NCBI GenBank assembly: GCA_002422525.1
Contig: DIWA01000015.1
Coordinates: 33,797 to 97,796, forward strand
Origin: Candidatus Hydrogenedentes bacterium UBA6118
GTDB lineage: Bacteria; Hydrogenedentota; Hydrogenedentia; Hydrogenedentales; SLHB01
DNA: 64,000 nt
Reading direction: 5' to 3'
Made by a program: the position numbers and the translations under genes. The notes below the pieces were generated by a model. That model was given only the letters and a program-made list of their open reading frames with translations, did no database searches and had not been told where the DNA came from. Position 1 is the stretch's first letter; the number at the start of each line of letters is the position of its first letter. Positions 1,507-57,703 of this stretch are shown piece by piece.

Positions 1507-1917
1507 CTACCTCGCGTGATCGCCGGGGTGAGGCTGGGCCACGGGGCAGCCGAGGACTTCGCGGATCTCTTGCTCGATGTGGCGCAGGCTGATTGGCTTG
1601 AGCAAGACGCGGGAAACAGACTGCAGCAGCGTGTCGTCGACCCGATCCAGGTACCCTGTGATCATGATGATCGGCAGTCCGGGAGCGACCGACCGCAGTT
1701 CGCGGATGGTCTCGCGACCGTCCATGCGCGGCATGTCGAGGTCCATGGTCACGATGTCGTAGGTGTTCTTGTTGAACAGATCGAGGGCCTCGACGCCGTT
1801 CGATGCGGTGTCGGCGTCGAAGCCGTGCGACGTGAGCCAGCGCCGGATAGCGTTGCGGATGCTCGGTTCATCGTCGACGATAAGTGCGCGTGGCGTGTCT
1901 GTGGGCGTTTCGTTCAT
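1507..1917 (-). CDS. single-domain response regulator (CheY-like receiver)
   Basis: 136 aa. Acidic pocket LIVDDEP, phospho-acceptor Asp in IVTMDLDMP, and the conserved K in LLKP. No output domain. Confidence 0.8.
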   Translation of the reverse strand: MNETPTDTPRALIVDDEPSIRNAIRRWLTSHGFDADTASNGVEALDLFNKNTYDIVTMDLDMPRMDGRETIRELRSVAPGLPIIMITGYLDRVDDTLLQSVSRVLLKPISLRHIEQEIREVLGCPVAQPHPGDHAR

Positions 1918-21121: not shown

Positions 21122-22324
21122 GTGAGCGGTGAGAAGAGTCAGTTCACGCGCCTCGTAGAGCTGGGGTTCCGCGTTGCGGCGCACTGGAAGCCCATGACGC
21201 TGTTCGCCCTGATCGGGGGCGTGGTCCTTGGTCTCGCGGCGTACTACGTGCCGCCGCCCTCCTACACGTGCGAGGTGCTGGTGTATCTGCAGCCGCAGCC
21301 GTGGACCGGCGAGACGGCGGGGCGGATCGACCTGGAACAGGAGATTGTGTTCACGCCGAAGCCGTTCTCGGCGTACCTGTCGCGCCCGCCGGAGGCGAAG
21401 GACTACGTACAGATCATGACATCCGACGGGGTGTTGGGGGACGTGCTGGACCGGTTCGTGGAGCGTCACGGCAGCGAGTACCGCGAGAAGGAGATTCCCA
21501 CGCGCCAACGGCTGCGACGGACGATCTCGGCATATGCGCCGACGGTGCTCAGGACGCCGTATGAAGTGGAACACACGCCTACGATCTACCTGTCGACCAA
21601 GGCGCCGAAACCCGAGATGGCGTATCAGCTCATGGTGATCTACCTCGAGGTGATCCAGGAGTGGACGCGAGACCTGACGTACGCGGAGCGGGCGAAGAAG
21701 GCCTTCGCGTCGGTGGAGGCGGAGTACAACCGCCTGCTGGGCGAGCTCGATGCGTTGGACGCGGAGCGGATTGCGCTGGCGCGGGAGAACGCGGAGAAGC
21801 TGGAGGCCGTGCAGCACGAGTGGTCTCGCAAAGCCGCGGAGTACGAGGCGGAGACCGAGCGGCTGGTGCTGGAGCTGATGGGCGAGTGGACCGAGCGGAT
21901 CGCGGAGGCCCCGGACGGCGTTGCGCGGGAAGTTGCGAAGGAGGAGCGGGACCAGGCGATCGAGGCGCTGCGCGCGGAGCGGCGCTACGGGCTGGAGGAT
22001 ATCCTGCGGGCGGGCGAGGGGGCCTACAGCGCCCTGCGGCGGGAGTGCGAAATCGCCGAGCAGAAGCTCGAGCGACGGTACCGGATGGAGCTCGAGATCA
22101 CGCAGAACGTGGCCGCGGCGTTGACGCGGGCCGCGCCGGTGATCGCGGAGGAGTTCGAGGAGATCGTCGTGATGAACGAGCCGCGGATGCCGGAGGAGCC
22201 GGAGAAGGCGTCGGTGGTGCTGTTCGTGGCGGGCGGCGTCGTGTTGTGCGGTCTGGCGGCGCTGGCCTACGTGATTGGCAAAGTGCTGGTGGGAGACGTG
22301 CGGTCGGCGGTGCAGCAGGGATAG
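21122..22324 (+). CDS. polysaccharide chain-length determinant (Wzz/PCP-like) protein
   Basis: GTG at 21122 has a GGAGGG RBS. N-terminal TM after FRVAAHWKPMTLFALIGGVVLGLAAYYVPPPSYTCEVLVYL matches the Wzz N-terminal pattern. It has a long coiled-coil periplasmic region and a C-terminal TM VVLFVAGGVVLCGLAALAYVIG. Confidence 0.5.
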   Translation: MSGEKSQFTRLVELGFRVAAHWKPMTLFALIGGVVLGLAAYYVPPPSYTCEVLVYLQPQPWTGETAGRIDLEQEIVFTPKPFSAYLSRPPEAKDYVQIMTSDGVLGDVLDRFVERHGSEYREKEIPTRQRLRRTISAYAPTVLRTPYEVEHTPTIYLSTKAPKPEMAYQLMVIYLEVIQEWTRDLTYAERAKKAFASVEAEYNRLLGELDALDAERIALARENAEKLEAVQHEWSRKAAEYEAETERLVLELMGEWTERIAEAPDGVAREVAKEERDQAIEALRAERRYGLEDILRAGEGAYSALRRECEIAEQKLERRYRMELEITQNVAAALTRAAPVIAEEFEEIVVMNEPRMPEEPEKASVVLFVAGGVVLCGLAALAYVIGKVLVGDVRSAVQQG

Positions 22325-22359
22325 GACGTTGGGGGGAGAGTGCGCCAGGAGATGGGAAA

Positions 22360-22436
22360 TGGCGTACCCGGAGGGACTCGAACCCCCAACCTTCTGGTCC
22401 GTAGCCAGACACTCTATCCAATTGAGCTACGGGTAC
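22360..22436 (-). tRNA. tRNA-Arg (anticodon ACG)
   Basis: Reverse complement GTACCCGTAGCTCAATTGGATAGAGTGTCTGGCTACGGACCAGAAGGTTGGGGGTTCGAGTCCCTCCGGGTACGCCA folds as a cloverleaf. Acceptor 7 bp, D-stem GCTC/GAGT, anticodon stem TCTGG/CCAGA, loop CTACGGA, T-arm GGGGG-TTCGAGT-CCCTC, and an encoded CCA. Confidence 0.85.
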
Positions 22437-22803
22437 GCACTGTTCTGAGCAGAACGAACGGAATGATAGCAGAGGATCGGGGCCGAATGCAAATCAGGTC
22501 CGGCGTCGGGCCGGCGTCGGCATCGGTTCGAGGCGGTCGGCGGGCGCTGTTAATAGCCTTGCTATGCCCTGATCGCATGGGCTATGATACGAAGAGCATG
22601 AGGGGCTTCTCGTTCCTGCGGGGATTGTCGGGGCGAGGGGCGCGATCGAGCAGGGTGAGAGAGTGACTCCACGAGACGAGCCGGGAGGAGTCTCCCGCGA
22701 GTGGGGGAGACTATTGACGCGATTGCCGAATAGTCGAGTCCGTCGAAACCGGCGAGGGATGCTTAACTATTTGCCAGCAAGGGGATTGCGTGGGATTCAT
22801 TTG

Positions 22804-22832
22804 TTGACAGCCCCGGTGCCGTGTGATATAAG
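22804..22832 (+). promoter_or_regulatory. near-consensus sigma70 promoter: TTGACA, 17-nt spacer, TATAAG
   Basis: TTGACA at 22804-22809 and TATAAG at 22827-22832, with AT-rich upstream flank GATTCATTTG. It is oriented toward the giant gene about 260 nt downstream. Confidence 0.5.
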
Positions 22833-23033
22833 GCCCTATGCCATTGTATGTTGGTTGGGCCGTCAAAGTCAGCCCGCCGGCGGTCATGGGTCGCAGGCCG
22901 GGGCGGCTTGCGGGCTGTGGGATATCCGTGTGGGGAGTCTGCAAGAGGGCGCGTGTGGCGCCTCCTGGACGACGTCGGGGTGTGCGGGCTCACACGGCAA
23001 GAAGGTAGCCATGCACGCAGAGAAACGGGAAAC

Positions 23034-23073
23034 AACGCTCCTCGGGCATTCACGCCCGGGAGCGTTTTTTGTT
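23034..23073 (+). terminator. intrinsic-terminator-like hairpin plus U-tract in the 5' leader (attenuator or riboswitch expression-platform candidate)
   Basis: AACGCTCCTCGGGC (23034-23047), loop ATTCAC, GCCCGGGAGCGTT (23054-23066), then TTTTTTGTT. The U-tract ends 6 nt before the RBS GGAGGT (23080-23085) and 20 nt before the GTG start. Confidence 0.5.
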
Positions 23074-23093
23074 CCTGCTGGAGGTACCGAACC

Positions 23094-26000
23094 GTGAAGA
23101 CCAAACTCGGCGCTCGAACCTGGTTCATCGGCGCAGCCTTGCTTGCGGGAGCGGCGCTGCTGGTTGCGCCCGCGGCGCGCGCGCAGGACGACGTCCCGAC
23201 GGCGAGCTTCAACATCGAGGACGCCGTCCAGGACGGTCACTCGCTGTTGCCCACGCAGAACTGGACGCCGCTGGTCCGGCTCGAGTTGGCGTGGGACAGC
23301 CAGGACGCGCCCGCGCCGCGGGATCTGACGGGGATGGTGTATTACATCACCGGGGATCCCGTGGATGAGCGGTCGTGGAGTCGGTACGCCAGTCCGGAGA
23401 CGAAGCACCTCTATGAGTTCGCGATCATCCGGGAGGGGCAAGGCCCGGACGACGACGGCTATGGGGTGTTGGGCGACAACGACAGCGTCTGGTATGTCTG
23501 GGACGGCGAAGGCGACCCGGTCGGCGAAGTGACCGACCTGGGCGGGGCCCTGCGGTACGAGATGGACTTCGTGGGGGATGGCACGGAGGACAATCCCGAG
23601 TTCCCGATCCCGAACGGTTCCGCGGACTTTCCCGCGAGCTATTTCCTCGCGGTGCGCACGTCGGCGCTGTGGCACAACGGCATGCACATGAGCGTGCGCA
23701 TTCCGGTGGGCGGGCTCGACTGGAACCCCCGTTTCCCCGACGACTCGGCGACGGTGGACGAGGATCCGTTCGAGCCGGAGACGGCCTACTCGGCCAGTTT
23801 CGGCGCGTACGACGTGACGGGTTCGCTCACCTCCGACCAGAGTTACGTGTACACGAATACGTGGAACTACCCGAACTTCGTGTACACGCCGCAGCCGGAG
23901 TATTCGCGTCCGCGTTGGGACAGCTCGGCGACGGCGCTGCAGATCCTGAACGGCGAGTGGATTCAGCTTCGGCGGCTGTTTGCGATCGAGACGTGGTATG
24001 CGGTGATCGGGCTGAACATGCATTCAAGTTCAGCGTCCGTCATGGAGACGGCGACGCGGAGCGGGTTCGATCCGCTGCTGAATCCCGAGCCGCGCGGCGA
24101 CGTGGGCCGCGTGCGGACGGTCGCGGTGGACGGGGCCTACCCGATCGAGATGAACGTCGTCATGACGGACGTGGGCGGGGATCCGCTCGGGCCTCCGGGA
24201 AACGGCGGGTTCAATCCGCAGACTGGTCTTGAGACCATGACCTACGATGTGCTGTCCGCCGGCGGCGACATCATCGTCGACCGCGCGTACGAGGAGGACC
24301 ACGCGTTCAACGGCGTCTGGCTGTGGCGCGACGGCGGCAACAACGATTTCGACCGGCCAACGCCCGGCGCGAACGGCGCGACGTTCGGCGAGGACACGCC
24401 CGCGTTGCCGATGGGCTGGGCGATCGACGACGACCAGAACATCTTCATGCTGCCGGACGCCGGGCTCGGCGCGTACTGGGAGCATGTGGCGAACCCGCCC
24501 GGCGGCGGGGATCCCTGGTGGCGAATCACGCTGCAGTTCGGCAACAACCGCGGCGGCGCGGGGCGCATGGAGCCGACGCCGAACGGCGATGTGAACGCGC
24601 GGCCAAGCATCCAGTTCCACGATTACTTCATCACGGTGCGCGCGGACAGCGGCTACGCGGATGCGAGCGGCCGGTCGGGCGACGGCACGGGGATCACGTA
24701 CGGCGCCGAGACTCGGATGTACATCGAGCCGCGGTATACGACGCCGAGCAACGACGTGTTCGACGGTTCGATGGACATGGGCGGGCTGCTCGTGACGTCG
24801 CAGTTCCCGCTGGAGTGGTCGGGCGGCTGGCGCGAGCACCCGGCGTTGAGCCCGGTGAACGAGGACACGGGGCTGCGGCAGCAGGAGCCGTGGTGGCACC
24901 AACGCACAATGGATCGCAACAACGCGAAACTGGTGCGCTTCGGCGCCGAGATCCACGACCTCGTGATGACCTACGAGTCGAACAACGCGTTCTCGATGGC
25001 GCAGGGCGTGGACATCGATATCGCGGGCGGCGACAACTTCGGCAACCCGGCGTTCAGCGATCTGCTCGACGACCTCGGCTTTGACTTCTTCTCGATCGCC
25101 AGCTTCGCGCGGTGGATGGATCCGTTCGGGATCCGGTCGGGCGAGTTCATCGACGGCTACCGTACGGGCGTGGTGAACTGGCGGTTCGTGGACTTGGGGA
25201 TCGACGACAGCCAGAACGGCCCGATGCAGAAGCCGTATGAGACGGCGCCGTTCTTCAATCCGCTCGATCTGGCGCCGGCGGGTCCGCGTTCGTTCTTCTA
25301 TCCGAACCCGCCGCAGCAGCCGTCGCTTCCGTCGTATGCGACGTGGCCGCTTGGCGCGGGCGAATTCGCGAACAATCCGGGTATGCAGACGCTGCCTCCG
25401 GGCGAGTTCCCGCGGGAGATCAACTGGCGGCCGGCGGATCTGGGCACGCGGAAGCTGAAACAGCATATCGACGCGGACAGTCGCGCGACGGCGTTGCTGG
25501 GGTTCAACATGGCCGGCGCGAACGACCCGGTGACGAACGAGTTCGCGGCGATCTCGCTCGAGCAGATCACGGTGGCCCTGTGGGGTCCGGACACCAACAA
25601 CGACGGCGTGATGGACTTCTCGCCGGCGGACTTGAAGGCGCTGGACCCGGAGGGTCTGTCCGGCACATCCGGCGTGGCGATCTATGTCGACACGGGGAGC
25701 GGCACGTTCTCGGATCTTGCCGGGGGCGACCAGCCGCTTCCGCTGCGAAGCCTGAAGTGGGGCAGCGCGCCGGAATTCCTCGATGTGACGGGCGACGGCG
25801 AGCCGGATGACCTGAACGGCGACGGCCTGATCACCGGGCTGGACAAGGCGTGGGTGCTGCGGCTGCGTCCGCAGACAGCCTTCCGCGTGCCGGTCGAGGA
25901 CGCGAACATCGCGCCATTTGCGCGTTCGCTGCCGTCGGGCGCGGGCTCGGGCGGCGGCAAGACCGTGCTGGATCTGGGCGAAGAGATCGAGGGCGCGCCG

Positions 26001-28265
26001 TACTGGACGCAGAAGCCGCGCCTGGTGGACCTGGAGACGTATAACGAGGACGCGATCGCGCAGGCTGGACAGGGCATGGGCGACGGGTCGATTCCGGTGA
26101 CTCAGATCCCCGGCGACCCGGACGGCGGCGGCAACGCGGGTGACGACCTGTTCTTCGTAGTTCGGACGTCGGATGCAATCGGGCAGTTCCGGAAGTTCAC
26201 GGCGCTTGTGCCGGCGACGTTGCCGGAGCGGCCTGTACAGGACCGGACGGCGGGGATGCAGTTTGCGCCGTCGAACATCCCGGCCGCGGCCTATGGCAAG
26301 AACCACCCGGAGGAGTCGGGCGGTCCGTCGTTCTTCGAGCACGAGCTGATCGAAGCGAATGTGGCGGTGAAGCTGACGGATTTGACCGGGCAGGGGCAGA
26401 TGCTGTACGCGAACGGCCAGCCGACGGCGGTAATGGGTATTGACGCATCGACGAACCGCGGCGGGGGCGCGATTGTGGCGTCCGGCGAAGCGGGCGTTGG
26501 GGGTCCGGGCCAGTTCACCGCGGCGGGCGCGGGCTTCCCGCCCGGCGGGTTCGTGGGCTACCACCTGATCGATTCGGCGTATGAGTCGTACCTGATCACG
26601 GGGAACACGAACACGCAGTTGACGGTGCTGAGCGGCACGCCGCTTTCGGGGGCGTGGCGGATCGTACGTGATCCGACGTATCTGGAACAGGTTATCGTGG
26701 AGCTGTATCCGGAGGTGGAGGACGTCCAGAACTTCAACCTGCTGGAGCATCTGCTTCCGCTGAATATCAACCAGGATGTCAGCGGTGTGGCGCTGTACCG
26801 CGATAATGACATGCATCCCGACAATCAGAACGGGATCTTTGATCCGGGCGTCGACATCCCGCTGCAACTGGACTACGCGCCGTATATGATCGGCATGCAG
26901 GGCGAACCGCGGCATCAGGTGTTGTTCGTGTTCAGTTCGCCGGGAACGGATGACGTGCCTCTGCAAGGGTTCCCGGCCGGCCTGGCCAACCAGCCGCGGC
27001 GGCGCCAGGTGATCCCGGAGACGTTCGGCGCGACGCTGAGCGACCCGGACCGCGGACCGGACTTCTTCGTGGTGATGCGGGCGGCCTCGAAGGTAGAGGA
27101 GCCGGTGGCGTTCCGGGTCGGCATCGTGTCGTGGGGTCCGAACACGCCGACGGCGCCGGATCCGGACACGTTCCCGCCGCCGCCGGTGGCGACAGTGGGC
27201 GAGTTCGACATCTTCTCGGAGTTCCCGTGGGGCGGGCGCGGCCTCGGCTTCGTCAGCTTCTTTGCGGATATCCGAGACTATGACGCGCGTGACTTCAGCG
27301 GATACAACTGGGTCCGTACGCATCCGAACAAGAACGTGCGGACAAACGTCCTGACCATTGACGAACAGACGGCGCAACCGGGCGACGTTGTGATCACCTC
27401 GGTGTCCCACGACAAGTTGCCGCAGGTGACGCCGGACGGCGGGATCGTGCTGGTGATTCGCGGCAGCGGGTTCGGCACGACGCCGCGGGTGACGCTGAAC
27501 AACACGTTGCTCGAGGTGCAGTCGGCGACGGATACGTCGATCAGCGCGCAGATTCCGGGCGGGTCGACCTTCACGGACATGCTGGTGTTGACGGTTACCA
27601 ACCCGAAGACCGAGAAGACGGGTACGTGGACGGCGATTACCCTTGTTCCGGACGACGGGGGCTTCGGCGACGCGCCGTCGATCGCGTCGGTGTCGCCGAG
27701 CAGCGGCAGCGCGGCCGCGTTCCCCGTGACGATCGTCGGCGCCCGGTTCAGTGATCCGATCGTGCGGTTTGACCAGGCGGAGATGCCGATCGTTGAATGG
27801 ACGCCGACGCGCGTGGTGGTGGCGTTCCCCTCATCGGGTCTGCCCAAGACGGGCCCGTTGGACGTCACCGTGGAGAATGGCGGCTCGGGTCTGTTCGCGA
27901 CGGCGGTGGACGCGTTCACGTATCTGAATATGCCGGGGACCGGGGTGCGGCCGTGCTTCATCGCGACGGCGGCGTACGGTTCGCCGTTGTCCGGGCAGTT
28001 GGACGTGTTCCGCGCATTCCGTGACGATGTGCTGCTGAAGAGCGCGGCGGGCGCGGCGGCGGTCGACCTGTATTACACGGTGAGCCCGGGGTTCGCGGAC
28101 GCGGTTGCGGCGCACCCGGCGCTGGCGATGGCGGTGCGGGCGGCGCTGACGCCGATCGCGTGGGCGCTGAAGTGGCCTGCGTGGGCCGCCGCCGTTGCGG
28201 TCGGTCTGACGTTGTGTGCGGCGGCGGCGTGTTTGCGGCGTCGCCGGGCGCGCGCGGCCGTGTGA
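23094..28265 (+). CDS. giant secreted cell-surface protein (~1,723 aa) with tandem IPT/TIG-like domains, Ca-binding D-x-D-G motifs and C-terminal sorting-signal-like module
   Basis: GTG at 23094 follows GGAGGT by 8 nt. Signal peptide VKTKLGARTWFIGAALLAGAALLVAPAARA-QDD. Ca-loop motifs DTNNDGVMDF and DDLNGDGLITGLD. Two Ig-like IPT/TIG segments (VITSVSHDK...IRGSGFG; IASVSPSSGSAAAFPVTIVGARF). C-terminus CFIATAAYGSPLSGQLDVFRAFRDDVL...DLYYTVSP, then TM AAAVAVGLTLCAAAAC and LRRRRARAAV. Confidence 0.75.
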   Translation: MKTKLGARTWFIGAALLAGAALLVAPAARAQDDVPTASFNIEDAVQDGHSLLPTQNWTPLVRLELAWDSQDAPAPRDLTGMVYYITGDPVDERSWSRYASPETKHLYEFAIIREGQGPDDDGYGVLGDNDSVWYVWDGEGDPVGEVTDLGGALRYEMDFVGDGTEDNPEFPIPNGSADFPASYFLAVRTSALWHNGMHMSVRIPVGGLDWNPRFPDDSATVDEDPFEPETAYSASFGAYDVTGSLTSDQSYVYTNTWNYPNFVYTPQPEYSRPRWDSSATALQILNGEWIQLRRLFAIETWYAVIGLNMHSSSASVMETATRSGFDPLLNPEPRGDVGRVRTVAVDGAYPIEMNVVMTDVGGDPLGPPGNGGFNPQTGLETMTYDVLSAGGDIIVDRAYEEDHAFNGVWLWRDGGNNDFDRPTPGANGATFGEDTPALPMGWAIDDDQNIFMLPDAGLGAYWEHVANPPGGGDPWWRITLQFGNNRGGAGRMEPTPNGDVNARPSIQFHDYFITVRADSGYADASGRSGDGTGITYGAETRMYIEPRYTTPSNDVFDGSMDMGGLLVTSQFPLEWSGGWREHPALSPVNEDTGLRQQEPWWHQRTMDRNNAKLVRFGAEIHDLVMTYESNNAFSMAQGVDIDIAGGDNFGNPAFSDLLDDLGFDFFSIASFARWMDPFGIRSGEFIDGYRTGVVNWRFVDLGIDDSQNGPMQKPYETAPFFNPLDLAPAGPRSFFYPNPPQQPSLPSYATWPLGAGEFANNPGMQTLPPGEFPREINWRPADLGTRKLKQHIDADSRATALLGFNMAGANDPVTNEFAAISLEQITVALWGPDTNNDGVMDFSPADLKALDPEGLSGTSGVAIYVDTGSGTFSDLAGGDQPLPLRSLKWGSAPEFLDVTGDGEPDDLNGDGLITGLDKAWVLRLRPQTAFRVPVEDANIAPFARSLPSGAGSGGGKTVLDLGEEIEGAPYWTQKPRLVDLETYNEDAIAQAGQGMGDGSIPVTQIPGDPDGGGNAGDDLFFVVRTSDAIGQFRKFTALVPATLPERPVQDRTAGMQFAPSNIPAAAYGKNHPEESGGPSFFEHELIEANVAVKLTDLTGQGQMLYANGQPTAVMGIDASTNRGGGAIVASGEAGVGGPGQFTAAGAGFPPGGFVGYHLIDSAYESYLITGNTNTQLTVLSGTPLSGAWRIVRDPTYLEQVIVELYPEVEDVQNFNLLEHLLPLNINQDVSGVALYRDNDMHPDNQNGIFDPGVDIPLQLDYAPYMIGMQGEPRHQVLFVFSSPGTDDVPLQGFPAGLANQPRRRQVIPETFGATLSDPDRGPDFFVVMRAASKVEEPVAFRVGIVSWGPNTPTAPDPDTFPPPPVATVGEFDIFSEFPWGGRGLGFVSFFADIRDYDARDFSGYNWVRTHPNKNVRTNVLTIDEQTAQPGDVVITSVSHDKLPQVTPDGGIVLVIRGSGFGTTPRVTLNNTLLEVQSATDTSISAQIPGGSTFTDMLVLTVTNPKTEKTGTWTAITLVPDDGGFGDAPSIASVSPSSGSAAAFPVTIVGARFSDPIVRFDQAEMPIVEWTPTRVVVAFPSSGLPKTGPLDVTVENGGSGLFATAVDAFTYLNMPGTGVRPCFIATAAYGSPLSGQLDVFRAFRDDVLLKSAAGAAAVDLYYTVSPGFADAVAAHPALAMAVRAALTPIAWALKWPAWAAAVAVGLTLCAAAACLRRRRARAAV
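27954..28262 (+). other. C-terminal conserved module (copy 1) plus TM helix plus Arg-rich tail
   Basis: CFIATAAYGS...FRAFRDDVLL...GAAAVDLYYTVSPGFADAV...WAAAVAVGLTLCAAAACLRRRRARAAV. Confidence 0.6.
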
Positions 28266-28396: not shown

Positions 28397-30772
28397 GTGA
28401 GAACGAGAATCTGGCACGTGATGCTGGTGGGCCTGTGTGGGATCGCCCTGCTGTTCGCAGCGCCCGGGGCCGAGGCGTTCTTCCCCCTGGGCGTGTTCCT
28501 GACGGATCTGGAATACGGGGATCCGTTGCGCATCCCGCTGTGGACGCTGAACTACATGGACACGAACGGGGACCGGGACGTGTCCGGAGCGAACGAGGGC
28601 ATCCCGATCACGTTCCAGGGCGGCGATGACGGATGGACCGTGCAGGAGATGCAGGCCCTGCAGGATGGGTTCGAGGTATGGGAGCGCGTGCCGTCTTCGT
28701 TCCTCGCCTTCCAGTACACCCAGCCGGTGGAGCAGGCGCTCGAGACGTCGGATGACTTGGGGTCGATCGACTTCTTCAACTACGTGGCGAATGACGCGGG
28801 CGGCGCGCTGGTTCCGGCGGGGTTCGCCGGGATCACGTTCATCTCGTATGTGGCCGAGAGCGGTTTCTTCACATACAACGGCCAGGCGATCGAGGTGACG
28901 GGGCCGCAGATCCTGGATGCGGATATCGCGATCTACGGGGATGTGATTCAGACCAGCCGCGACATTGATTTCTCGAATGCCACGGACCAGTTCGATGCGG
29001 GGGTGCCGCTGTCGGGTCTGGTGGTTCAGTTGGCGGGGATGATGGCGGGGCTTGGCCAGAGTCCGATGACCAATACCGATGAAGTGCAGGTGCAGACGGC
29101 GGGCGGCGAGCTGACGCTGCTCGTGGATCCGCTGGTGTACGCGGACCGGGTGTTCTCGGGGAACCTGCAGATGGTGGGCGTGACGCCGAGCATGTACCCG
29201 AATCTGGTGTACACGGACCTCGGGAATGACATCTACCGGCTGGCGTGGGAGGACCTCGCGCCGGACGACATCGCGGGGATCACGTTCCTGTATCCGCGGG
29301 GCGACTTGTCGAACTTCTTCACGGTGCAGCAGGAAGCGCGGTACGCGTCGCGGGCCGGGTTCCCGACGGCGCCGATCGCGGGCGGGTTCATCGAGGCCTG
29401 GTGTGACGTGGACGACAACGCGAACACGCCGCGCGTACCGATGTTCAGCACGCTGACGGGGATGTATGAGAACCAGGCGCAGTTCTCCGGGTTCTTCCGA
29501 CTGTACAACCTGTTCCGGCAGATCGAGTCGCCGACGGCCGTGCCGTTCACCGCGTCGTATACGCTTACGCTGAGCGAGCTGGAGCCGCCGGAGGGGTTCA
29601 CGGCGGACTTCTTCGACTCGCTGCACAACGGGCTGTACGCGGGCGGCGGCGGGTTTGCGTTCTCGACGAACTACCCGCATCAGACGTTCCTGGAAGGCGG
29701 CGAGAATATCATGAGCCGGGACCGGCATGATGAGGGCACGCCGCTGATGTACGATCCGGTGCGCGCGGAAGTGGTGAGCGCGGTGTCGGGGCGCACGCTC
29801 GATCAGATGCTGCCGGGAACGCGGCCGATGTTCGGCGAGTCGGATGCGCAGAACGTGTGTCCGTTGACGCTCGCGGCGCGGCTGGCGAAGACGCAGAACG
29901 GTCCGCGGCTGTTGCGGCAGTTCCGCGACGACGTGTTGCTGACGAATGCGCTGGGCGCGGCCGCGGCGGACGCCTACTACCGGATGGCGCCGACGATGAG
30001 CGCGTTCCTGATGGAGTACCCGATTGCGATGAGGACGGCGCAGGCGATGGCGGAGCTGACGGAATGGGGCATCGCGCATGCGCGGATGCTCGCGGCGCTG
30101 TTGTTGGCGGCGATCGGCGCGGCCTTCGCGATGCGGCGGCGGGTCGTACGCGCGGGCGTCGCGGCGGGATTGATCCTTGCTGCCGCGATCGTGTTCGCGG
30201 GCGGCACGGCGGACGCGCAGGCGATCGACTATTCGATCGAGAAGGCGGTCTCGCTGAGCGATGACATTCTGACCGGTGAAGTGACGTCGCTGCAGTGCCG
30301 GATGAACGACAACGGGCAGATCATCACGGACGTCTCGATCGAGATCGAGGACACGATGAAGGGCGCGTTGAATCGTACGGGGACGCTGCATTTCAGCCAG
30401 ATTGGCGGCGAAGTGAACGGCGTCACGACGTATGTACCGCAGTATCCGCGCTGGCGGCAGGGCGAGGAGGTCGTCGTGCTGATGAAGCGGAACGCGGTGT
30501 TCGGCCACATGGCGGTGTACGGCGTCGGCGGGAAGTTCGAGGTGAAGACGGACGAGGAGACGGGCAAGAAGTACGTCGTGGGTTCGACGGCGCTGGCGAA
30601 GCTGGGCCTGGATAGAGCGCGGCCGACGATAGAGAAGCGTGACGGAGCCGAGGCGTCGGAAGACGGCCCGGCGCAGGGCGTGGACCTGGACGCGTTCAAG
30701 GCGTATCTGGAGTCCGTGGCGGCGGAGCAGGCCGCGAACGAGGAGGCGGCGCGGACGGTGTCCGACGAGTAG
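28397..30772 (+). CDS. large secreted protein (791-aa ORF) with internal copy of the C-terminal sorting-like module, then an in-frame second signal-peptide-like segment and a 190-aa domain
   Basis: GTG at 28397 follows GAGGAG by 7 nt. Signal peptide VRTRIWHVMLVGLCGIALLFAAPGAEA. The module CPLTLAARLAKTQNGPRLLRQFRDDVLL...DAYYRMAP spans aa 488-578 and ends in TM MLAALLLAAIGAAFA plus MRRR. Then VVRAGVAAGLILAAAIVFAGGTADAQA and a soluble domain follow to the stop at 30770-30772. Confidence 0.65.
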   Translation: MRTRIWHVMLVGLCGIALLFAAPGAEAFFPLGVFLTDLEYGDPLRIPLWTLNYMDTNGDRDVSGANEGIPITFQGGDDGWTVQEMQALQDGFEVWERVPSSFLAFQYTQPVEQALETSDDLGSIDFFNYVANDAGGALVPAGFAGITFISYVAESGFFTYNGQAIEVTGPQILDADIAIYGDVIQTSRDIDFSNATDQFDAGVPLSGLVVQLAGMMAGLGQSPMTNTDEVQVQTAGGELTLLVDPLVYADRVFSGNLQMVGVTPSMYPNLVYTDLGNDIYRLAWEDLAPDDIAGITFLYPRGDLSNFFTVQQEARYASRAGFPTAPIAGGFIEAWCDVDDNANTPRVPMFSTLTGMYENQAQFSGFFRLYNLFRQIESPTAVPFTASYTLTLSELEPPEGFTADFFDSLHNGLYAGGGGFAFSTNYPHQTFLEGGENIMSRDRHDEGTPLMYDPVRAEVVSAVSGRTLDQMLPGTRPMFGESDAQNVCPLTLAARLAKTQNGPRLLRQFRDDVLLTNALGAAAADAYYRMAPTMSAFLMEYPIAMRTAQAMAELTEWGIAHARMLAALLLAAIGAAFAMRRRVVRAGVAAGLILAAAIVFAGGTADAQAIDYSIEKAVSLSDDILTGEVTSLQCRMNDNGQIITDVSIEIEDTMKGALNRTGTLHFSQIGGEVNGVTTYVPQYPRWRQGEEVVVLMKRNAVFGHMAVYGVGGKFEVKTDEETGKKYVVGSTALAKLGLDRARPTIEKRDGAEASEDGPAQGVDLDAFKAYLESVAAEQAANEEAARTVSDE
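29858..30142 (+). other. C-terminal conserved module (copy 2), located internally in the 791-aa ORF
   Basis: Same Cys / [FL]RxFRDDVLL / G / YY..AP / hydrophobic helix / RRR order as copy 1. Confidence 0.6.
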
Positions 30773-30823
30773 GGCGGACGTCGGTGCGGCGGCCGAGTCG
30801 AACGAGCTGGTAAGTAGTTGATC

Positions 30824-30866
30824 GCGGCGGTCTCAGGGGTTCTGGGGCCGCCGCGTTGTGTGTGTG
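30824..30866 (+). terminator. GC-rich hairpin followed by a (TG)5 / U-G-rich tract
   Basis: GCGGCGG (30824-30830) pairs with CCGCCGC (30848-30854), then GTTGTGTGTGTG. It lies 50 nt after the stop of the 791-aa ORF. Confidence 0.35.
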
Positions 30867-31121
30867 CGGGGGCGGGGGGAGCGCGGGGTTTTGTAGCGCG
30901 TCGCGGCGAAGGGATACACTGGCAACCGCGCCCGTAACCCGAACGGCGTCAACCGCGTGCGGGCAGGGCGCGTTCCCGAAGCGGGTGATCATCCCGGGGG
31001 CGATTCGGCGCATGCGTGGGTCTGCCGCCGAGCGCGTAGCGCGCGGCCGGGATGGAGTGCGCCGACGCAGGCGACGGGGTGTCGTTTGCGGCGTACCTTG
31101 GCTGGAGTTATCGACGAAATC

Positions 31122-43664: not shown

Positions 43665-43694
43665 TTTATACCCGAACGGCGGCGGCGAAGTCAA
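43665..43694 (-). promoter_or_regulatory. sigma70-type promoter for rpmG: TTGACT, 18-nt spacer, TATAAA
   Basis: On the minus strand, TTGACT is the complement of 43689-43694 and TATAAA the complement of 43665-43670. The leader to the rpmG ATG is about 60 nt. Confidence 0.45.
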
Positions 43695-52369: not shown

Positions 52370-52829
52370 AGTTGGTCTCCTTCCACGTTCGCACCTTTTC
52401 GATGACGAACGCGACAGCTTCTTCGAGGTTGGCTTGGGCCCGCGGGGTGAGGCCTTCGACGAAGTCGAAGTCGTACCCGCGAATCCCCAGCGTCCACGCC
52501 TTGGGCGCGGCGCTGAAGTGGTCCTCGCAGATGGCGAGGATGGCCTCGGGGGACACCGCGTGGCTCGTGAACTCGATAGACGATGCGGGGCGCACGGGCT
52601 TGAGCTCGAGGGGCTCGGGCCCGCTCTCGGCGGCATCGACGAACAGGACGTGGTCGTGTCCGGCGATGGCCGCGCCGTCTTCGATGTTCAACTGGTAGTC
52701 GGAGTCGAGCACTACATCGGGGATGCGGAGGCTCTCGAGCCGGGCTACCAGGGCGGGCCCCAGGCCGTCGTCGCGACGGCCCGGGTTCCCGTATCCGAGG
52801 ATGTACGCCGTGGCCACGGGGCTGGTCAC
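52362..52829 (-). CDS. hoxW: [NiFe]-hydrogenase maturation endopeptidase (HoxW/HycI family)
   Basis: 155 aa. Metal ligands are the N-terminal D/E, the D in VLFVDAAESG, and the H in EFTSHAVSP. It lies immediately downstream of the large subunit gene. Confidence 0.8.
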   Translation of the reverse strand: MTSPVATAYILGYGNPGRRDDGLGPALVARLESLRIPDVVLDSDYQLNIEDGAAIAGHDHVLFVDAAESGPEPLELKPVRPASSIEFTSHAVSPEAILAICEDHFSAAPKAWTLGIRGYDFDFVEGLTPRAQANLEEAVAFVIEKVRTWKETNYG

Positions 52830-54277
52830 CCGCGGAGTTTCTCGTCGACGACTTCGCCGTCGGGTCCGACGAGCTGGACCTGGAGCCGCATCTTGCCCAG
52901 GGCGTGGGTGGCGCAGCTCAGGCAGGGGTCGTAGGCGCGGATGCCGACCTCGACGTGGTTGAGGAGGCCTTCCGTGATCTCCTTGCCTTCGAGGTACTGC
53001 TTCGCGACGACGTTGACGGCGCGGTTCATCGCCTCGTTGTTGTTGGTGGTGGAGACGATGAGGTTGGCGCGCGTGATCTGGTCGGTCTGGTTGTTGACCT
53101 CGTAGTGGTGGAAGAGCGTGCCGCGCGGGGCCTCGATAATGGCGATGCCCTCGGGCCGCTTCTCGCCGGCGACCACCAGGTCTTCGCTCTGGAGATCGGG
53201 GTCGTTGAGCAGTTCGCGGATCTTCTCAGCCGAGTGCAGCGTTTCGATCATGCGCGCCCAGTGGTACGCCATGGTGGCGTTGATCGGCTTGCCGCCGCCG
53301 AGCGCCATGAACTCCTGGCGTTCCTGTTCGGCGAGGGGCGTGTCGATGAAGTCGCAGTTGTTGACGCGGGCGAGCGGCCCGACGCGGTACCAGCCGTTTT
53401 CCTTTCCGAGGGAGCGGATGAAGGGGAACTTCATGTAGCTCCAGGGGCGGACTTCCTCGCCGATGTACTTGAGGTAGTCGGCAGGAGCGACCTGGTCGAA
53501 GATGATGTTGCCATCGGCATCTTTCGCGCGGAGCTTGCCGTCGTAGAGGTCCATGCAGCCGTCTTCGCGGACGATGCTGAGATGGTTGGACGGGAAGGAG
53601 CCGAACTCGAGCAGCGTCTGGCCGCCGGCCTTGGTGATCTTCTTGCAGAGCGCCAGGCCTTCGACCGACCACTGGACCATGGTGTCGGCGTCCTTGAGCA
53701 GGAAGTCGCGCTCTTCGATGGAGAGCGGCTTGTTGACGCCGCCCGGGATGGCGCCGGTGCCGTGGATCTTTTTGCCCGCGGTCGCCTTGATGACTTCCTG
53801 GCCGTACTTGCGCATGAGCACGGCCTGTTTGGCGACATCGGGGTAGGCCTGGATGACGCCGATGACGTTGCGCTTCTCGACGGGCGCGTCGAACCCGAAG
53901 AGGAGGTCCGGCGACGCGAGGTGGAAGAAGTGCAGGGCATGCGACTGGAAGGTCTGGCCGTAGTGCATGAGCCTGCGGATCTTCTCGGCGGCGGGAGTGA
54001 GCTTATCGGCGCCGACGATGACGTCGGTGGCCTTCGCGGCGCAGAGGTGGTGGCTGACGGGGCAGATGCCGCACAGCCGTTGCACCATGACGGGGGCTTC
54101 CCAATAGAAGCGCCCCTGCACGAAGCGTTCGAATCCGCGGAACTCGATGATGTGGAACCGGGCTTGCTCCACGTTTCCGGCGGCGTCGATGTGAATGGTC
54201 ACCTTGCCGTGGCCTTCAACGCGGGTCACGGGATTGATGACGATCTTTCTTTTGCCCGTATCAGCAGCAGTTGCCAT
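52826..54277 (-). CDS. hoxH: bidirectional [NiFe] hydrogenase large subunit (group 3)
   Basis: N-terminal RLCGICPVSHH (L1 motif, Ni ligands) and C-terminal DPCLSCATH (L2 motif). These are followed by the 24-aa extension ALGKMRLQ..., which is removed by the maturation protease. Confidence 0.9.
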   Translation of the reverse strand: MATAADTGKRKIVINPVTRVEGHGKVTIHIDAAGNVEQARFHIIEFRGFERFVQGRFYWEAPVMVQRLCGICPVSHHLCAAKATDVIVGADKLTPAAEKIRRLMHYGQTFQSHALHFFHLASPDLLFGFDAPVEKRNVIGVIQAYPDVAKQAVLMRKYGQEVIKATAGKKIHGTGAIPGGVNKPLSIEERDFLLKDADTMVQWSVEGLALCKKITKAGGQTLLEFGSFPSNHLSIVREDGCMDLYDGKLRAKDADGNIIFDQVAPADYLKYIGEEVRPWSYMKFPFIRSLGKENGWYRVGPLARVNNCDFIDTPLAEQERQEFMALGGGKPINATMAYHWARMIETLHSAEKIRELLNDPDLQSEDLVVAGEKRPEGIAIIEAPRGTLFHHYEVNNQTDQITRANLIVSTTNNNEAMNRAVNVVAKQYLEGKEITEGLLNHVEVGIRAYDPCLSCATHALGKMRLQVQLVGPDGEVVDEKLRG

Positions 54278-54298
54278 GAGTTGTGGTCTCCGTGGAGC

Positions 54299-54838
54299 TT
54301 AGTCGTACTTGACCATTTCGTAGGGTAGGTCGAGCGGCTTGCCGGAAAGCAGCGCCGTCAATGCGGCCCAGATCACGTCCGCTGAGGGCGGGCAGCCGGG
54401 CAGGAAGTAGTCGATCTTGACCACCTCGTGGCAGGGGTAGACCTTGTCCAGGAGGATGGGGATGTCGGGATCGTCCGGGATTTTGCCGTCGACCACGGTC
54501 GGTCCGTCGATAAAGGCTTCCTGCAGGCACTCGCGCAGGGGCACGGTGTTGCGGATCGACGGGACGCCGCCGGTGACGGCGCAAGCGCCGAGGGCGATGA
54601 GGATCTTGCAGTTCTCGCGGAACATGCGCAGGAACTCGACGTTTTCGTCGTTGCTGACCCCGCCCTCGACGAGTCCGATGTCGACGGGGCGGGAGAAGCG
54701 TTTGATGTCATTGATGGGCGACTTGTCGAATTCGACGAGCTCGACGAGGTCGAGGATGCGTTCGTCGATGTCGAGGATCGACATGTGGCAGCCGAAGCAA
54801 CCGGTGAAGTGGCCCGTCGCAACGAGTGGTTTGGCCAT
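54299..54838 (-). CDS. hoxY: [NiFe] hydrogenase small subunit (group 3, HoxY-type)
   Basis: 179 aa. Proximal-cluster cysteines GCFGCH...GACAVTGG...GCPP. The short form lacks the medial and distal cluster domain, typical of HoxY. Confidence 0.85.
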   Translation of the reverse strand: MAKPLVATGHFTGCFGCHMSILDIDERILDLVELVEFDKSPINDIKRFSRPVDIGLVEGGVSNDENVEFLRMFRENCKILIALGACAVTGGVPSIRNTVPLRECLQEAFIDGPTVVDGKIPDDPDIPILLDKVYPCHEVVKIDYFLPGCPPSADVIWAALTALLSGKPLDLPYEMVKYD

Positions 54839-54859
54839 GAGTCTAGCCCCTTTCTTCGA

Positions 54860-55576
54860 TTACTTGGCCGAGCGCGACCGTTCGATCTCGGAACCGATGG
54901 GTTCGTGGTCGTACTTGCGTTGGCCCACCGGGATGGCGAAGCCTTTGCGCTTGAGCATGATGCATCCCGTGGGGCAGACCTCGGCGGCCTTGTCGGCGGC
55001 GGCGAGGTTGGTCTCGCCGAGGTTGTGGGGGGCGTCGACGCTGATGCGCTTATGGACGCCGCGGCCTTCGAAGCCGAAGACGACCTTGTGGTCAACCTCT
55101 CGGGAGGCGCGGGCGCATCGGCCGCAGAGGATGCAGCGGTCGCGGTCGACGTAGACGTCCTTGTGGGAAGCGTCGAGTTCGCGTTCGCAGCGGAAGTAGG
55201 GAAGCGTGGGCGCCAGCAGGCCCAGGCGATAGGCCATGGCCTGCAGCTCGCAGTTGCCGCTGTGTTCGCAGGTGGGGCAGTAGTGGTTGCCCTCGACGAA
55301 GAGCATCTCGACGATGCGGCGGCGGTGGTCGTTGAGCTCCTCGGTGTCGTTCTCGACGACGAGGCCCTCATCGGCCGGGAAGGTGCACGAGCTGGCGGGG
55401 CGGCCGTTAATCTTGACCGTGCACAGGCGGCAGTGGCCGCCGGGCGGCAGCGAGGGGTGGTAGCAGAGCCGGGGGATGTAGATGCCGGCATCGTCCGCCG
55501 CCTGCAGGATGGTCTGCCCGGCCTTGGCCGTGATCTCCACGCCGTCGATGGTGAAGGTGACTGGTTTGTCGCTCAT
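54860..55576 (-). CDS. hoxU: diaphorase iron-sulfur subunit HoxU (NuoG N-terminal-like)
   Basis: 2Fe-2S motif C-x10-C-x2-C (CYHPSLPPGGHCRLC). 4Fe-4S motifs CPTCEHSGNC and CILCGRCARASRE...CPTGC. Confidence 0.85.
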   Translation of the reverse strand: MSDKPVTFTIDGVEITAKAGQTILQAADDAGIYIPRLCYHPSLPPGGHCRLCTVKINGRPASSCTFPADEGLVVENDTEELNDHRRRIVEMLFVEGNHYCPTCEHSGNCELQAMAYRLGLLAPTLPYFRCERELDASHKDVYVDRDRCILCGRCARASREVDHKVVFGFEGRGVHKRISVDAPHNLGETNLAAADKAAEVCPTGCIMLKRKGFAIPVGQRKYDHEPIGSEIERSRSAK

Positions 55577-57351
55577 ACGTGGTGTTCCTCCAAGGCAGGC
55601 GTGCGACCGGTGATCTCGCAGCCCTCTTTGATCGCTTTGTCCAGGTCGAACGACGGGATGAAGTCGTCCGACTGAAGCAGGGCATCGTAGAGCTCGGGGA
55701 AGTTCCGCATGGTCGTGAGGATGGGGTTCGCGGCGGTCTGCCCGAGGCCGCAGCGGCTCATCGTCTTGACGGTCATGCAGACCTGCTCAAGCTGCTGGTA
55801 GTCGGCGCGGGTCCCCTTGCCGTCGAGGATCTTGCGGAAGATGATGTCGAGGTGCTTGGCGCCGACGCGGCAGGGGACGCACCATCCGCAGGACTCCTCG
55901 ACGAAGAACTCGATGAACTGGTGCATGGATTCGAGGATGTTGCGCTGGGGGCCGAAGACGATGAAGGATCCGCCGGTGGGGATGTCTTCGAACGAGATGC
56001 TTCGGCCGAAGTTGCGCGGCGCGAGGCACTGGCCGGAGGGCCCGCCGACCTGGACGGCCGCGGCGTCTTCCGCGCCGACCATGTTGAGCACGGTGGCGAC
56101 GGTGGCGCCGTAGGGCACTTCATAGACGCCGGGGCGCTCGCAGTCGCCGGAGACGCTGAGGAGCTTGGCGCCGGTGCTGTCGCGCGTGCCGATGGAGGAG
56201 AACCACTCGGCGCCCTTTTCCATGATGCGGGCGGCGCAGCAGAGGGTCTCGACGTTGTTTACGGAGCTGGGCTGGTTGCGGTAGCCCTTCTGCACGGGGA
56301 ACGGGGGCCGATCGCGGGGGGCGCCGCGCTTGCCTTCGAGCGACTCGATGAGCGCGGATTCCTCGCCGCAGATGTAGGCGCCGGCGCCGAGCTGGATGCG
56401 GATGTCGAAGTTGAAGCCTTCGCGGCCGCAGATGTTCTCGCCGAGGAGGCCGAGTCTGCGGCGTCGGGCGAGGACCTGCTCGAGATGCGGCAGGAGGTAC
56501 TCATACTCGGCGCGGAGGTAAAGGAAGCCTTCGCGGGCGCCGATCACGAACGCGGCGACAGTCATGCCTTCGAAGACGAGGTCGGGCTGTTCGGTGAGGA
56601 TGACGCGGTCCTTGAACGTGCCGGGTTCGCCTTCATCCGCATTGCAGATGATGTAGTGGGCGTCGCCCTCGGCCTTGCGGCAGAAGTCCCATTTCATCGC
56701 CAGGGGGAAGCCGGCGCCGCCGCGTCCGCGCAACCGGGCCGTATTCATCGTGGCGATGATCTCGTCGGGGGTCATGTCGACGGCGCGGCGGACGGCCGCT
56801 CCGCGATCCATGGGCGCGAAGATGACGGGCCCGCTCTGACGCAGGTTCAGTTCGATCTCGGCGACGGGGAGGGACTGAACGGCTCCGCCCTTCTTGATCG
56901 CGTCGATGATGGCGGGAACGTCGGCTTTGCGGATGCCGGTGATGGGGACGCCGTTGACGAGGGCGGAGGGGGGTTGGTCGCTCATGCCCATGCAGGGGGT
57001 GTATTCGAGGGAGATGGCGCCGTCGGGGGTGGTTTCCCCGAAACGGATGCCGAGGGCCTCCTCGAAGGCTTGGGCGATTTCATCGGCGCCGTTCATGCGC
57101 TCGACGACCGCGTTGCAGAGTCGGATGGTGGTCTTGCCTTTCGGGGAGCGGGAAAGGAAGGCGTAGAAGCTGACCATGTCGCGGACTTCCACGCGGTGGA
57201 TGCCGAGCGCGTCGGCGATCTCCCCGATGATGTCCTCGGACAGGTGTCCGAGCTTTCCGTGGAGGGCGCGAGCGATGTCCATCAAGCGGGAGCGATCCGC
57301 GCCGAACTGCTCGACGACCTCCTTGACCAGTGTTGAATGCGCCTCAGCCAT
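55573..57351 (-). CDS. hoxF: NAD(P)H-binding diaphorase subunit HoxF (NuoE-like + NuoF-like)
   Basis: ATG at 57349-57351 has a GGTGGAGG RBS. NuoF core: GRGGAGFP (FMN/NAD site), CGEESALIESLEG, and the 4Fe-4S motif CGWCVPCR. The track start is an upstream GTG. Confidence 0.85.
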   Translation of the reverse strand: MAEAHSTLVKEVVEQFGADRSRLMDIARALHGKLGHLSEDIIGEIADALGIHRVEVRDMVSFYAFLSRSPKGKTTIRLCNAVVERMNGADEIAQAFEEALGIRFGETTPDGAISLEYTPCMGMSDQPPSALVNGVPITGIRKADVPAIIDAIKKGGAVQSLPVAEIELNLRQSGPVIFAPMDRGAAVRRAVDMTPDEIIATMNTARLRGRGGAGFPLAMKWDFCRKAEGDAHYIICNADEGEPGTFKDRVILTEQPDLVFEGMTVAAFVIGAREGFLYLRAEYEYLLPHLEQVLARRRRLGLLGENICGREGFNFDIRIQLGAGAYICGEESALIESLEGKRGAPRDRPPFPVQKGYRNQPSSVNNVETLCCAARIMEKGAEWFSSIGTRDSTGAKLLSVSGDCERPGVYEVPYGATVATVLNMVGAEDAAAVQVGGPSGQCLAPRNFGRSISFEDIPTGGSFIVFGPQRNILESMHQFIEFFVEESCGWCVPCRVGAKHLDIIFRKILDGKGTRADYQQLEQVCMTVKTMSRCGLGQTAANPILTTMRNFPELYDALLQSDDFIPSFDLDKAIKEGCEITGRTPALEEHHV

Positions 57352-57703
57352 GCGTAGTGCCTCCACCGTTGCGAGCGGCCCGAAAAGGACACACCGGATC
57401 CCTTGGGGGACTCCATGCGCCACTCAAAGATACTGCATTTCGAGGGGGGAACCGTGGACCCGGCTCCCGGATTCGCGAAGCGTATCACAATAGGCGGGAG
57501 TACGCAAGGTTCTCTCCGCCGGGTCTCCCCCGTTATCTTGTGGGCGTTGCTCTAGGGTATCTGTTGACGCGATCCGTGCCTAAGCTGTTGCTATGTATAA
57601 ACCCCCTCTTTCGGACCGGAGCGGCCGATCCGGGTCAAGCGCCGCACGAACCCGTGCGAGACGGGGATCGCAGTTGGGGCGCGAATCGTGAATATGTGCA
57701 CGA

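Follow-up and report, generated by a model that had tools for sequence, protein, structure and literature searches.

Several described control systems place an intrinsic terminator between a promoter and the gene that it drives. In pyrBI of Escherichia coli, and in leaders of the trp/his type, the promoter is followed by a short open reading frame (ORF) that overlaps the terminator just before the structural gene. In phage lambda, the PR' promoter feeds the 6S RNA, which ends at the terminator tR', and read-through into a very long unit depends on Q. In the LoaP-controlled dfn leader, a small hairpin and an intrinsic terminator likewise precede operons of unusual length (PMC12691694). Here, we describe a control region of comparable layout in a 64,000-nt stretch of DNA from Candidatus Hydrogenedentes bacterium UBA6118 (contig DIWA01000015.1; hereafter the 64-kb window, with all coordinates on its + strand unless marked otherwise), in which a promoter (P1) and a structured leader ending in a terminator-like hairpin precede a gene for a giant secreted protein of 1,723 amino acids (aa). 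We know of no cultured, genetically tractable representative of the Hydrogenedentota, and to our knowledge nothing is established on the control of their gene expression. Our preferred reading, to which we give a probability of roughly 0.55, is that the region is a transcription attenuator gating the dedicated promoter of the giant CFI-box-CTERM gene and of its partner gene. The arrangement of promoter, leader and terminator recurs across the Hydrogenedentota and, judged from this conservation, it is a real control region.

A first-pass annotation of the window had proposed a near-consensus sigma70 promoter, TTGACA-N17-TATAAG, at 22804-22832, a position that we confirmed to the base. P1 combines a -35 element (TTGACA, 22804-22809; 6/6 consensus positions), a spacer of 17 nt, the TG of an extended -10 (22824-22825) and a -10 element (TATAAG, 22827-22832; 5/6 positions, the final T missing), and the description as near-consensus thus holds for the -35, the spacer and the extended -10 but not for the last base of the -10, which is usually the best conserved. 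The motif is single in the window, with 0.26 matches expected even at ≤2 mismatches, and TGNTATAA also occurs there once. For comparison, we assembled 146 sources (2.13 Mb) consisting of the window, contigs with close hits, 80 genome loci and 62 metagenome loci; the locus in the window is called WIN and its homologues L001 and so on. The contig of the window derives from JGI sample 3300002498. L001 is the only close relative of WIN in the protein database and two contig collections (protein 82% identical, leader 89% identical). The pattern TTGACA-N13-15-TGnTATAAn, searched on both strands of this set, gave 70 matches on the gene strand and 0 on the opposite strand, and 67 of the 70 lay 146-426 nt (median about 250) upstream of the start of a giant homologue. 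The starts downstream of these matches have the form GGAGG-N-GTG, the giant homologues range from 1,700 to 5,100 aa with 30-50% protein identity, and wherever the source names them they are from Candidatus Hydrogenedentota. Within the ~8-10-kb flanks of the collected loci, the motif preceded no other gene. Altogether, these results point to P1 being a dedicated sigma70-type extended -10 promoter, predicted to be active and to start transcription near 22839.

The final T of the -10 (the -7 T) is normally its best conserved base and is normally needed by sigma70. Among 60 distinct P1-type promoter strings, in which the spacer is 17 nt in 58 cases, the last -10 base was G in 27, A in 25, C in 8 and T in none (TATAA followed by G, A or C). 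The tRNA-Arg promoter of the same window keeps a canonical -7 T (TGcTATCAT), suggesting that the avoidance is specific to the giant-gene promoter. The built-in promoter scan passed over P1 because its -10 ends in G and not in T. Conservation also extends well beyond the promoter: in an ungapped comparison of the upstream regions of 61 loci, anchored on the -35, the information content climbs from about -100. In WIN this conserved region (22714-22803, the ~100 bp adjoining the -35 upstream) carries the boxes TTGACG (22714-19), GAATAGT (22728-34), GAAA (22745-48), TGCTTAAC (22760-67), GGATTGCG (22783-90) and a T-rich stretch (22795-803). The consensus reads ..TTGACAaaaat..GAATAgTGC..gcGAAA..tGCTTAACc..GGAATTGCG..TTTcTTTg, and its boxes (TTGACAaaaat, GAATAgTGC, GCGAAA, TGCTTAACC, GGAATTGCG and the T-rich box) are conserved phylum-wide and occur only with the giant gene. 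They look like the putative binding region of a dedicated DNA-binding factor; a sigma54 or extracytoplasmic-function (ECF) reading of the boxes was rejected by inspection, as the spacing is unsuitable. What sets the locus apart most is the combination of these conserved boxes with a -7 T that is systematically absent.

In more AT-rich clades, variant promoters (e.g. TTGACA-N..-TGCAATAA or TTGACAAAT..TGCTGTAA) stand at the equivalent position (L024, L035, L038, L046, L049, L102, L103, L105, L121, L139, L142 and L144), so that the strict P1 motif undercounts the family. In the window itself, a relaxed match to the motif (TTGACT-N..-GGGTATAA) was found on the - strand at 43666-43694, between the end of the type II secretion system (T2SS) cluster and a glycoside-hydrolase gene; this match, antisense to the T2SS genes, is probably due to chance.

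At the downstream end of the leader stands a terminator-like hairpin (23034-23073). Its 5' arm (AACGCTCCTCGGGC, 23034-23047), loop (ATTCAC, 23048-23053) and 3' arm (GCCCGGGAGCGTT, 23054-23066) form a GC-rich stem of 13 bp with one bulged U and a 6-nt loop, followed by UUUUUUGUU. The U-tract (TTTTTTGTT, 23065-23073) ends 6 nt before the GGAGGT (23080-23085) of a ribosome-binding site (RBS) whose GTG start codon lies at 23094-23096. The earlier coordinates for a ~235-nt leader, a hairpin with U-tract at 23034-23073 and an RBS 6 nt further on, belonging to the 1,723-aa gene, were thus all correct. Terminator-like sites were called with a strict detector, which requires a single hairpin of ≤-8 kcal/mol followed by a T-rich run (background 0.57 sites per kb per strand overall); a relaxed detector was dropped as too permissive (31/63 leaders vs 52/177 control windows). 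With -24.2 kcal/mol, the WIN hairpin is the strongest such site on either strand of the window. Among 63 distinct leaders, 22 carry a strict hairpin and U-tract with the tract starting 21-35 nt before the start codon, when about 0.5 would be expected, and GGAGG stands 10-19 nt before the start codon in 53. The same site was found in four further giant-gene leaders that lack the strict promoter motif (L006, L007, L070 and L085).

The pairing of the hairpin is also conserved. With a covariance model made from five sequences of the WIN clade, the hairpin is recovered in other clades, each match ending at the start codon of a giant gene. In the hairpin alignment, which was fitted to the structure of this model so that the result leans towards it, 93.7% of the cells are paired and 40 are changed on both sides, vs 11.6±3.1 in shuffles and ≤6 in slid controls. 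The outer five stem pairs (GCUCC...GGRGC) are conserved in sequence while the inner pairs covary, and covariation in support of a conserved structure at this locus is thus found in the terminator stem. Two weaker matches of the model are ordinary terminators that end the partner gene in L050 and L021, and since a hairpin and U-run end that gene, these organisms appear to use intrinsic terminators. In stem, loop, U-tract and covariation, the WIN hairpin has the properties of an intrinsic (Rho-independent) terminator, and it is predicted to terminate transcription in vivo. Because the U-tract lies only 6 nt before the RBS, RNA polymerase would have to cross the hairpin to express the giant gene, and the hairpin is therefore most naturally read as an attenuator.

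The leader itself (22839-23093) is a structured non-coding 5' untranslated region that measures about 255 nt up to the start codon, or about 235 nt if counted to where the U-tract ends. We rejected the possibility that it encodes an N-terminal extension (a 1,805-aa ORF from ATG 22848), because the G+C content at third codon positions (GC3) in the giant gene's frame is 0.66 in the leader vs 0.88 inside the gene; the longer ORF is a high-G+C artefact and the true start is GTG 23094. Several measures indicate that the leader is folded. The minimum free energy (MFE) of the WIN leader has a z-score of -2.3 vs dinucleotide shuffles, and the L001 leader folds to -135 kcal/mol vs -118.7±5.4 for composition-matched permutations (1/400 as low). 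The 28 differences between the WIN and L001 leaders break 5 WIN MFE pairs vs 15.5 expected, and 0/1000 random placements broke as few.

A structured leader, maintained between WIN and L001 and ending in a terminator, has the layout of a terminator-type riboswitch, and the first-pass annotation had suggested a riboswitch or attenuator with some resemblance to a c-di-GMP-I aptamer. In a metabolite or second-messenger riboswitch, of the c-di-GMP-I or of a new class, an aptamer would choose between the terminator and an antiterminator. One group of relatives might fit this idea: the leaders of L010, L014, L018, L033, L050 and L077 are ~335 nt long (e.g. L014 6994-7328), carry two tandem terminator-like hairpins and share an invariant ~75-nt core, ACCTGCAGGTGCGGTGGGCCGCGGCGCAGGAG...GTGCCCACAGAGGG, with no Rfam match, which could be a clade-specific RNA element or aptamer. 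Three lines of evidence argue the other way. First, using Rfam 15, cmscan with permissive filters found no family, RF01051 included, in 22300-23300 at E≤10; at the gathering score, the whole window gave only a tRNA, and seven homologous loci and L014 gave no leader match. The likeness to c-di-GMP-I is therefore not borne out. Second, the interior of the leader is not alignable between clades and is conserved within clades only, unlike that of a ligand-binding aptamer. An nhmmer search with the WIN leader against all loci returned L001 as the sole clear match, k-mer enrichment over 63 leaders yielded T-runs and the RBS with no shared core, and MAFFT with RNAalifold on 5 and on 16 leaders gave no supported consensus helix outside the terminator. 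Third, no competing antiterminator of comparable stability emerged from the folding of the leader with the terminator 3' arm masked: the masked leader reaches -91 kcal/mol vs -111.7 with the terminator formed, the terminator accounting for ~-20 kcal/mol, and the freed 5' arm pairs only weakly with 23013-23027. The search for alternative terminator and antiterminator folds that had been proposed for this leader thus yielded no more than this weak local partner for the 5' arm.

Given that no Rfam family matches, that the interior lacks conservation from clade to clade and that a stable antiterminator is missing, we consider a classical metabolite riboswitch unlikely and rate it as quite improbable. 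What stands of the first proposal is the layout, which is real and conserved across the phylum, with attenuation as its natural reading; the riboswitch part is unsupported. The leader is conserved among relatives in part: distant ones share the promoter, the leader length and the hairpin, and the interior cannot be aligned between clades. The leader is absent from Rfam 15 and undescribed as far as the searchable literature shows.

A candidate upstream ORF (uORF, 23001-23097) offers another way in which the hairpin might be controlled. It consists of a sequence resembling a Shine-Dalgarno (SD) element (GAAGGT, 23001-06), a gap of 4 nt, an ATG (23011-13) and 28 codons up to TGA (23095-97). The ATG is 23 nt before the hairpin, the frame crosses both of its arms, and the TGA overlaps the GTG start of the giant gene (GTGA). 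In the five WIN-clade leaders (WIN, L001, L004, L003 and L002), the uORF start codon, a TTG in L002, falls on one and the same alignment position, 20-35 nt upstream of the hairpin, and the reading frame runs to or through the hairpin. (N)GCAGAG follows this start in L001, L004, L003 and L002, and in WIN, L001, L004 and L003 the start comes after an SD-like purine stretch. More broadly, ATG-ORFs enter the hairpin in 13 of 17 clade representatives vs 7.4 expected, a modest and post hoc enrichment, and the GTGA stop/start overlap is found in WIN, L006, L043, L017, L069 and L130. No regulatory codon runs are present in the uORF peptide, MHAEKRETTLLGHSRPGAFFVPAGGTEP, and translation of the uORF is hypothetical.

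Short ORFs of a different kind were seen early in other leaders. In L015, L032, L054, L069, L076, L078, L081-L083 and L130, a conserved GGGGA-N5-6-ATG stands at about +15 to +30; these leaders belong to paralogues of 3,000-5,000 aa, and the ATG opens ORFs of 45-68 codons (e.g. MVLQ...) that extend over a large part of the leader. The early-leader ORF of L076 and that of L081 end within the terminator-like hairpin.

The hairpin might also involve no conditional switch at all, acting as a constitutively leaky terminator or as a 5' stabiliser or translation enhancer; it would then adjust the output of a very strong promoter and shield a very long mRNA, with the short RNA possibly serving as a small RNA (sRNA). 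No sensor element was identified in the leader searches, many relatives lack the U-tract, and a hairpin and U-tail downstream of an A/G-rich stretch resembles the 3' end of a stable sRNA. In addition, translation can be enhanced by U-rich sequence beside an SD. Nevertheless, a 13-bp GC stem followed by 6 U would be expected to terminate efficiently, and a position conserved to within about 15 nt with respect to the start codon, together with the enrichment of hairpin-crossing ORFs, suggests a coupled mechanism and not passive leakage. An independent ~235-nt sRNA gene, the other option of the first-pass annotation, does not suffice as the whole story, as it leaves the transcription of the giant gene unexplained: only 20 nt separate the U-tract from the giant-gene start codon, which leaves no room for a separate promoter downstream of the terminator. 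We regard an unswitched hairpin of this sort as unlikely.

Sequence around P1 bears on a further alternative. A second promoter-like element (P2, 22823-22852) overlaps the P1 -10 and comprises GTGATA (22823-28), an 18-nt spacer and TATGTT (22847-52). The pattern [GT]TGA[CT]A-N16-18-TAnnnT occurs in 15 of 64 leaders, WIN included, vs 0.23 expected from shuffles, in the form GTGAYA-N17/18-TAnnnT, and its varying spacer sequence indicates that P2 is a DNA element. P2 may be a tandem promoter (with a start site near 22859) or an early-transcribed -10-like (pause) element. It is confined to some clades and missing from most, and the overall excess of -10-like elements in early leaders was not significant (33 vs 28). 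As a pause element it would recall factor-dependent processive antitermination of the lambda Q/PR'-tR' or LoaP/dfn kind, in which a protein loads at the promoter or leader and the polymerase then resists the leader terminator and those further along a long, costly unit. The logic of these known systems is matched by the strong dedicated promoter, the terminated leader of ~200 nt and the great length of the genes (5-15 kb); the TATGTT at about +8 to +13 is placed as in sigma-dependent pause sites, the phylum-wide conserved DNA flanking the promoter could be a loading site, and the lack of an antiterminator helix in the leader RNA is what such a mechanism would allow. However, a -35-like sequence lies 17-18 bp from the -10-like element, which gives the pair more the look of a tandem promoter; most clades lack the element, and the predicted leader structure contains no UNCG-type hairpin. 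Pfam scans of the window genes revealed no NusG/KOW, Q-like or other antiterminator domain, and phmmer with approximate E. coli NusG and RfaH queries matched none of 453 window ORFs, a result that we take as a lead only. Given the conserved promoter-flanking DNA, a trans-acting antiterminator is a serious alternative for what operates the gate, though as a complete account we find factor-dependent antitermination rather improbable, if less so than an unswitched hairpin.

We propose the following sequence of events for the attenuator that we favour. P1, below its ~100-bp conserved upstream region, and possibly then P2, would drive synthesis of the ~235-nt structured leader. The hairpin would form by default, because no competing helix exists, and transcription would stop, with a terminated RNA of ~215-235 nt as an expected by-product. 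The giant gene would be made only upon read-through by the polymerase, so that the hairpin would serve as an attenuator or gate. The signal for read-through would be a trans-acting factor or a ribosome, and most probably not a small-molecule aptamer. In the ribosome version, a ribosome translating the uORF behind the polymerase would prevent the hairpin and hand over to the main start codon, in a pyrBI-like translation-coupled antitermination; we regard this step alone as rather less likely than not. What the analysis establishes is the sequence elements, their conservation, the covariation of the stem and the lack of a match to any known RNA family; promoter activity, termination in vivo and conditional read-through are all predictions from sequence. 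A bolder version would join these elements into a phylum-wide cassette, in which a factor-binding region, a -7 T-avoiding promoter and a terminator-gated leader form a new Q-/LoaP-like or ribosome-coupled antitermination switch, the terminated leader doubling as an abundant small RNA; we offer it as a speculation of low probability.

A number of observations weigh against the gate. Half to two thirds of the homologous leaders have no clear hairpin and U-tract, and in some of them (e.g. L005, L009, L031, L071, L044 and L107) the promoter and a ~250-nt leader are kept with the U-tract missing; with so many leaders lacking it, the gate cannot be a general feature, and there must be other roles for the leader. 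The strength of P1 is uncertain, as its -10 has no -7 T. The alignment behind the covariation was, as stated, fitted to the structure of the model. For the uORF, the enrichment of 13 vs 7.4 is modest and was found after several ideas had been explored, and the peptides lack conservation, with lengths of 28 codons in WIN, 12 in L001 and 5 in L004. Beyond the WIN clade, an SD is missing from most uORFs, and the WIN uORF shows no coding signature (GC3 0.46). For a factor, no gene for a NusG paralogue, Q, ANTAR or BglG/CAT antiterminator was found in the 64-kb window. A chance juxtaposition of promoter-like and terminator-like sequences, without function, was also considered, and a simple consensus scan indeed finds terminator-like sites in the window about as often as in shuffles (9 vs 7.1). 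Against chance, the promoter is conserved in 67 loci with a strand bias of 70:0, the hairpin holds its position in 22/63 leaders vs 0.5 expected and its stem covaries, and we treat coincidence as negligible.

The giant gene (23094-28265) encodes a 1,723-aa protein with a signal peptide, IPT/TIG repeats and a CFI-box-CTERM domain, with matches to Pfam PF01833, to NCBIfam NF041770 (C-terminal CFI-box-CTERM, 5.7e-23) and to choice-of-anchor-Z (CoaZ) repeats. The searchable literature held nothing relevant on CFI-box-CTERM or on Hydrogenedentes with a T2SS. The partner gene (28397-30772) encodes 791 aa with a weak CFI-box-CTERM match and a faint midcut-by-XrtH match. No terminator was found in the 131-nt gap between the two genes, and, as read from the sequence, they are a co-transcribed two-gene unit. 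A hairpin of 15 bp with a GU-rich tail (30823-30855) follows the partner gene, and a second G-rich hairpin with TTTTG lies within 30823-30900, between the partner gene and gspC. Canonical hairpin and U terminators stand at the position equivalent to 30823-30855 in L050 and L021, and the hairpin in the window is probably the end of the transcription unit; since the unit probably ends before gspC, the T2SS genes downstream (C, D, E, F, G, J, K and M) may be transcribed separately. The order of giant gene, ~800-aa partner and T2SS C-D-E-F-G is conserved while the upstream genes vary between relatives, indicating that the promoter marks the start of a conserved unit. In the window, the only upstream neighbour is a tRNA-Arg(ACG) gene on the opposite strand (22360-22436, -), which shares a 658-bp intergenic region with the control region of the giant gene and has its own extended -10 promoter, TTGCAT-N18-TGcTATCAT, at about 22463-22492 (-).

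Elsewhere in the window, genes like those for the large and small subunits of a NiFe-hydrogenase lie with NuoE/F/G-like genes at 52826-57423 (-), consistent with the hydrogen metabolism for which the phylum is named. The sole signalling genes seen were one at 1507-1917 (-) for a lone receiver domain and one at 57704-59095 (-) for a HAMP histidine kinase. Several metagenome-assembled genomes in which the giant-gene locus, specific to Hydrogenedentota, occurs bear the title 'uncultured Nitrospiraceae/Nitrospirales' or 'Bathyarchaeia archaeon' (L007, L008, L012, L016, L020, L033 and others); these titles are probably taxonomic mislabels or binning errors.

The locus thus provides a concrete, highly conserved control region, made of a promoter, upstream boxes and a terminator-gated leader, that is tied to one gene family. 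It could help to mark those surface-protein genes that the phylum drives most strongly, could be used to study antitermination in a lineage so far unexplored, and might be entered as a new RNA family. A further lesson is that a riboswitch-like layout need not mean a riboswitch. Compared with c-di-GMP-I (GEMM-I, RF01051) riboswitches, the long structured 5' leader and the terminator next to the RBS are alike and the surface and secretion context is plausible, but here there is no covariance-model match at E≤10, no cross-clade aptamer core and no antiterminator helix. With the LoaP-dependent dfn/mln leaders of Bacillus velezensis the locus shares a leader terminator placed before long, costly genes, for which read-through is needed; it differs in having no UNCG tetraloop hairpin and no NusG-paralogue gene found in the window, and in belonging to another phylum (PMC12691694). 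The lambda PR'-6S RNA-tR' unit resembles it in its strong promoter, its terminated leader RNA of ~200 nt, its early -10-like element and its very long transcription unit, whereas the Hydrogenedentota case is a cellular locus where no Q-like gene was detected and where the -10-like element, present in certain clades only, comes with a -35 partner. In pyrBI and the trp/his-type leaders, as may be the case here, a short ORF overlaps an intrinsic terminator just before the structural gene, and a ribosome on the leader ORF would prevent the hairpin; in contrast to them, the WIN leader has no regulatory codon runs and no 1:2/2:3/3:4 alternative helices, and its uORF, hypothetically translated, is conserved neither in peptide sequence nor in length. 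Altogether, the resemblance to pyrBI coupling and to lambda PR'-tR' would be one of logic, not of family.

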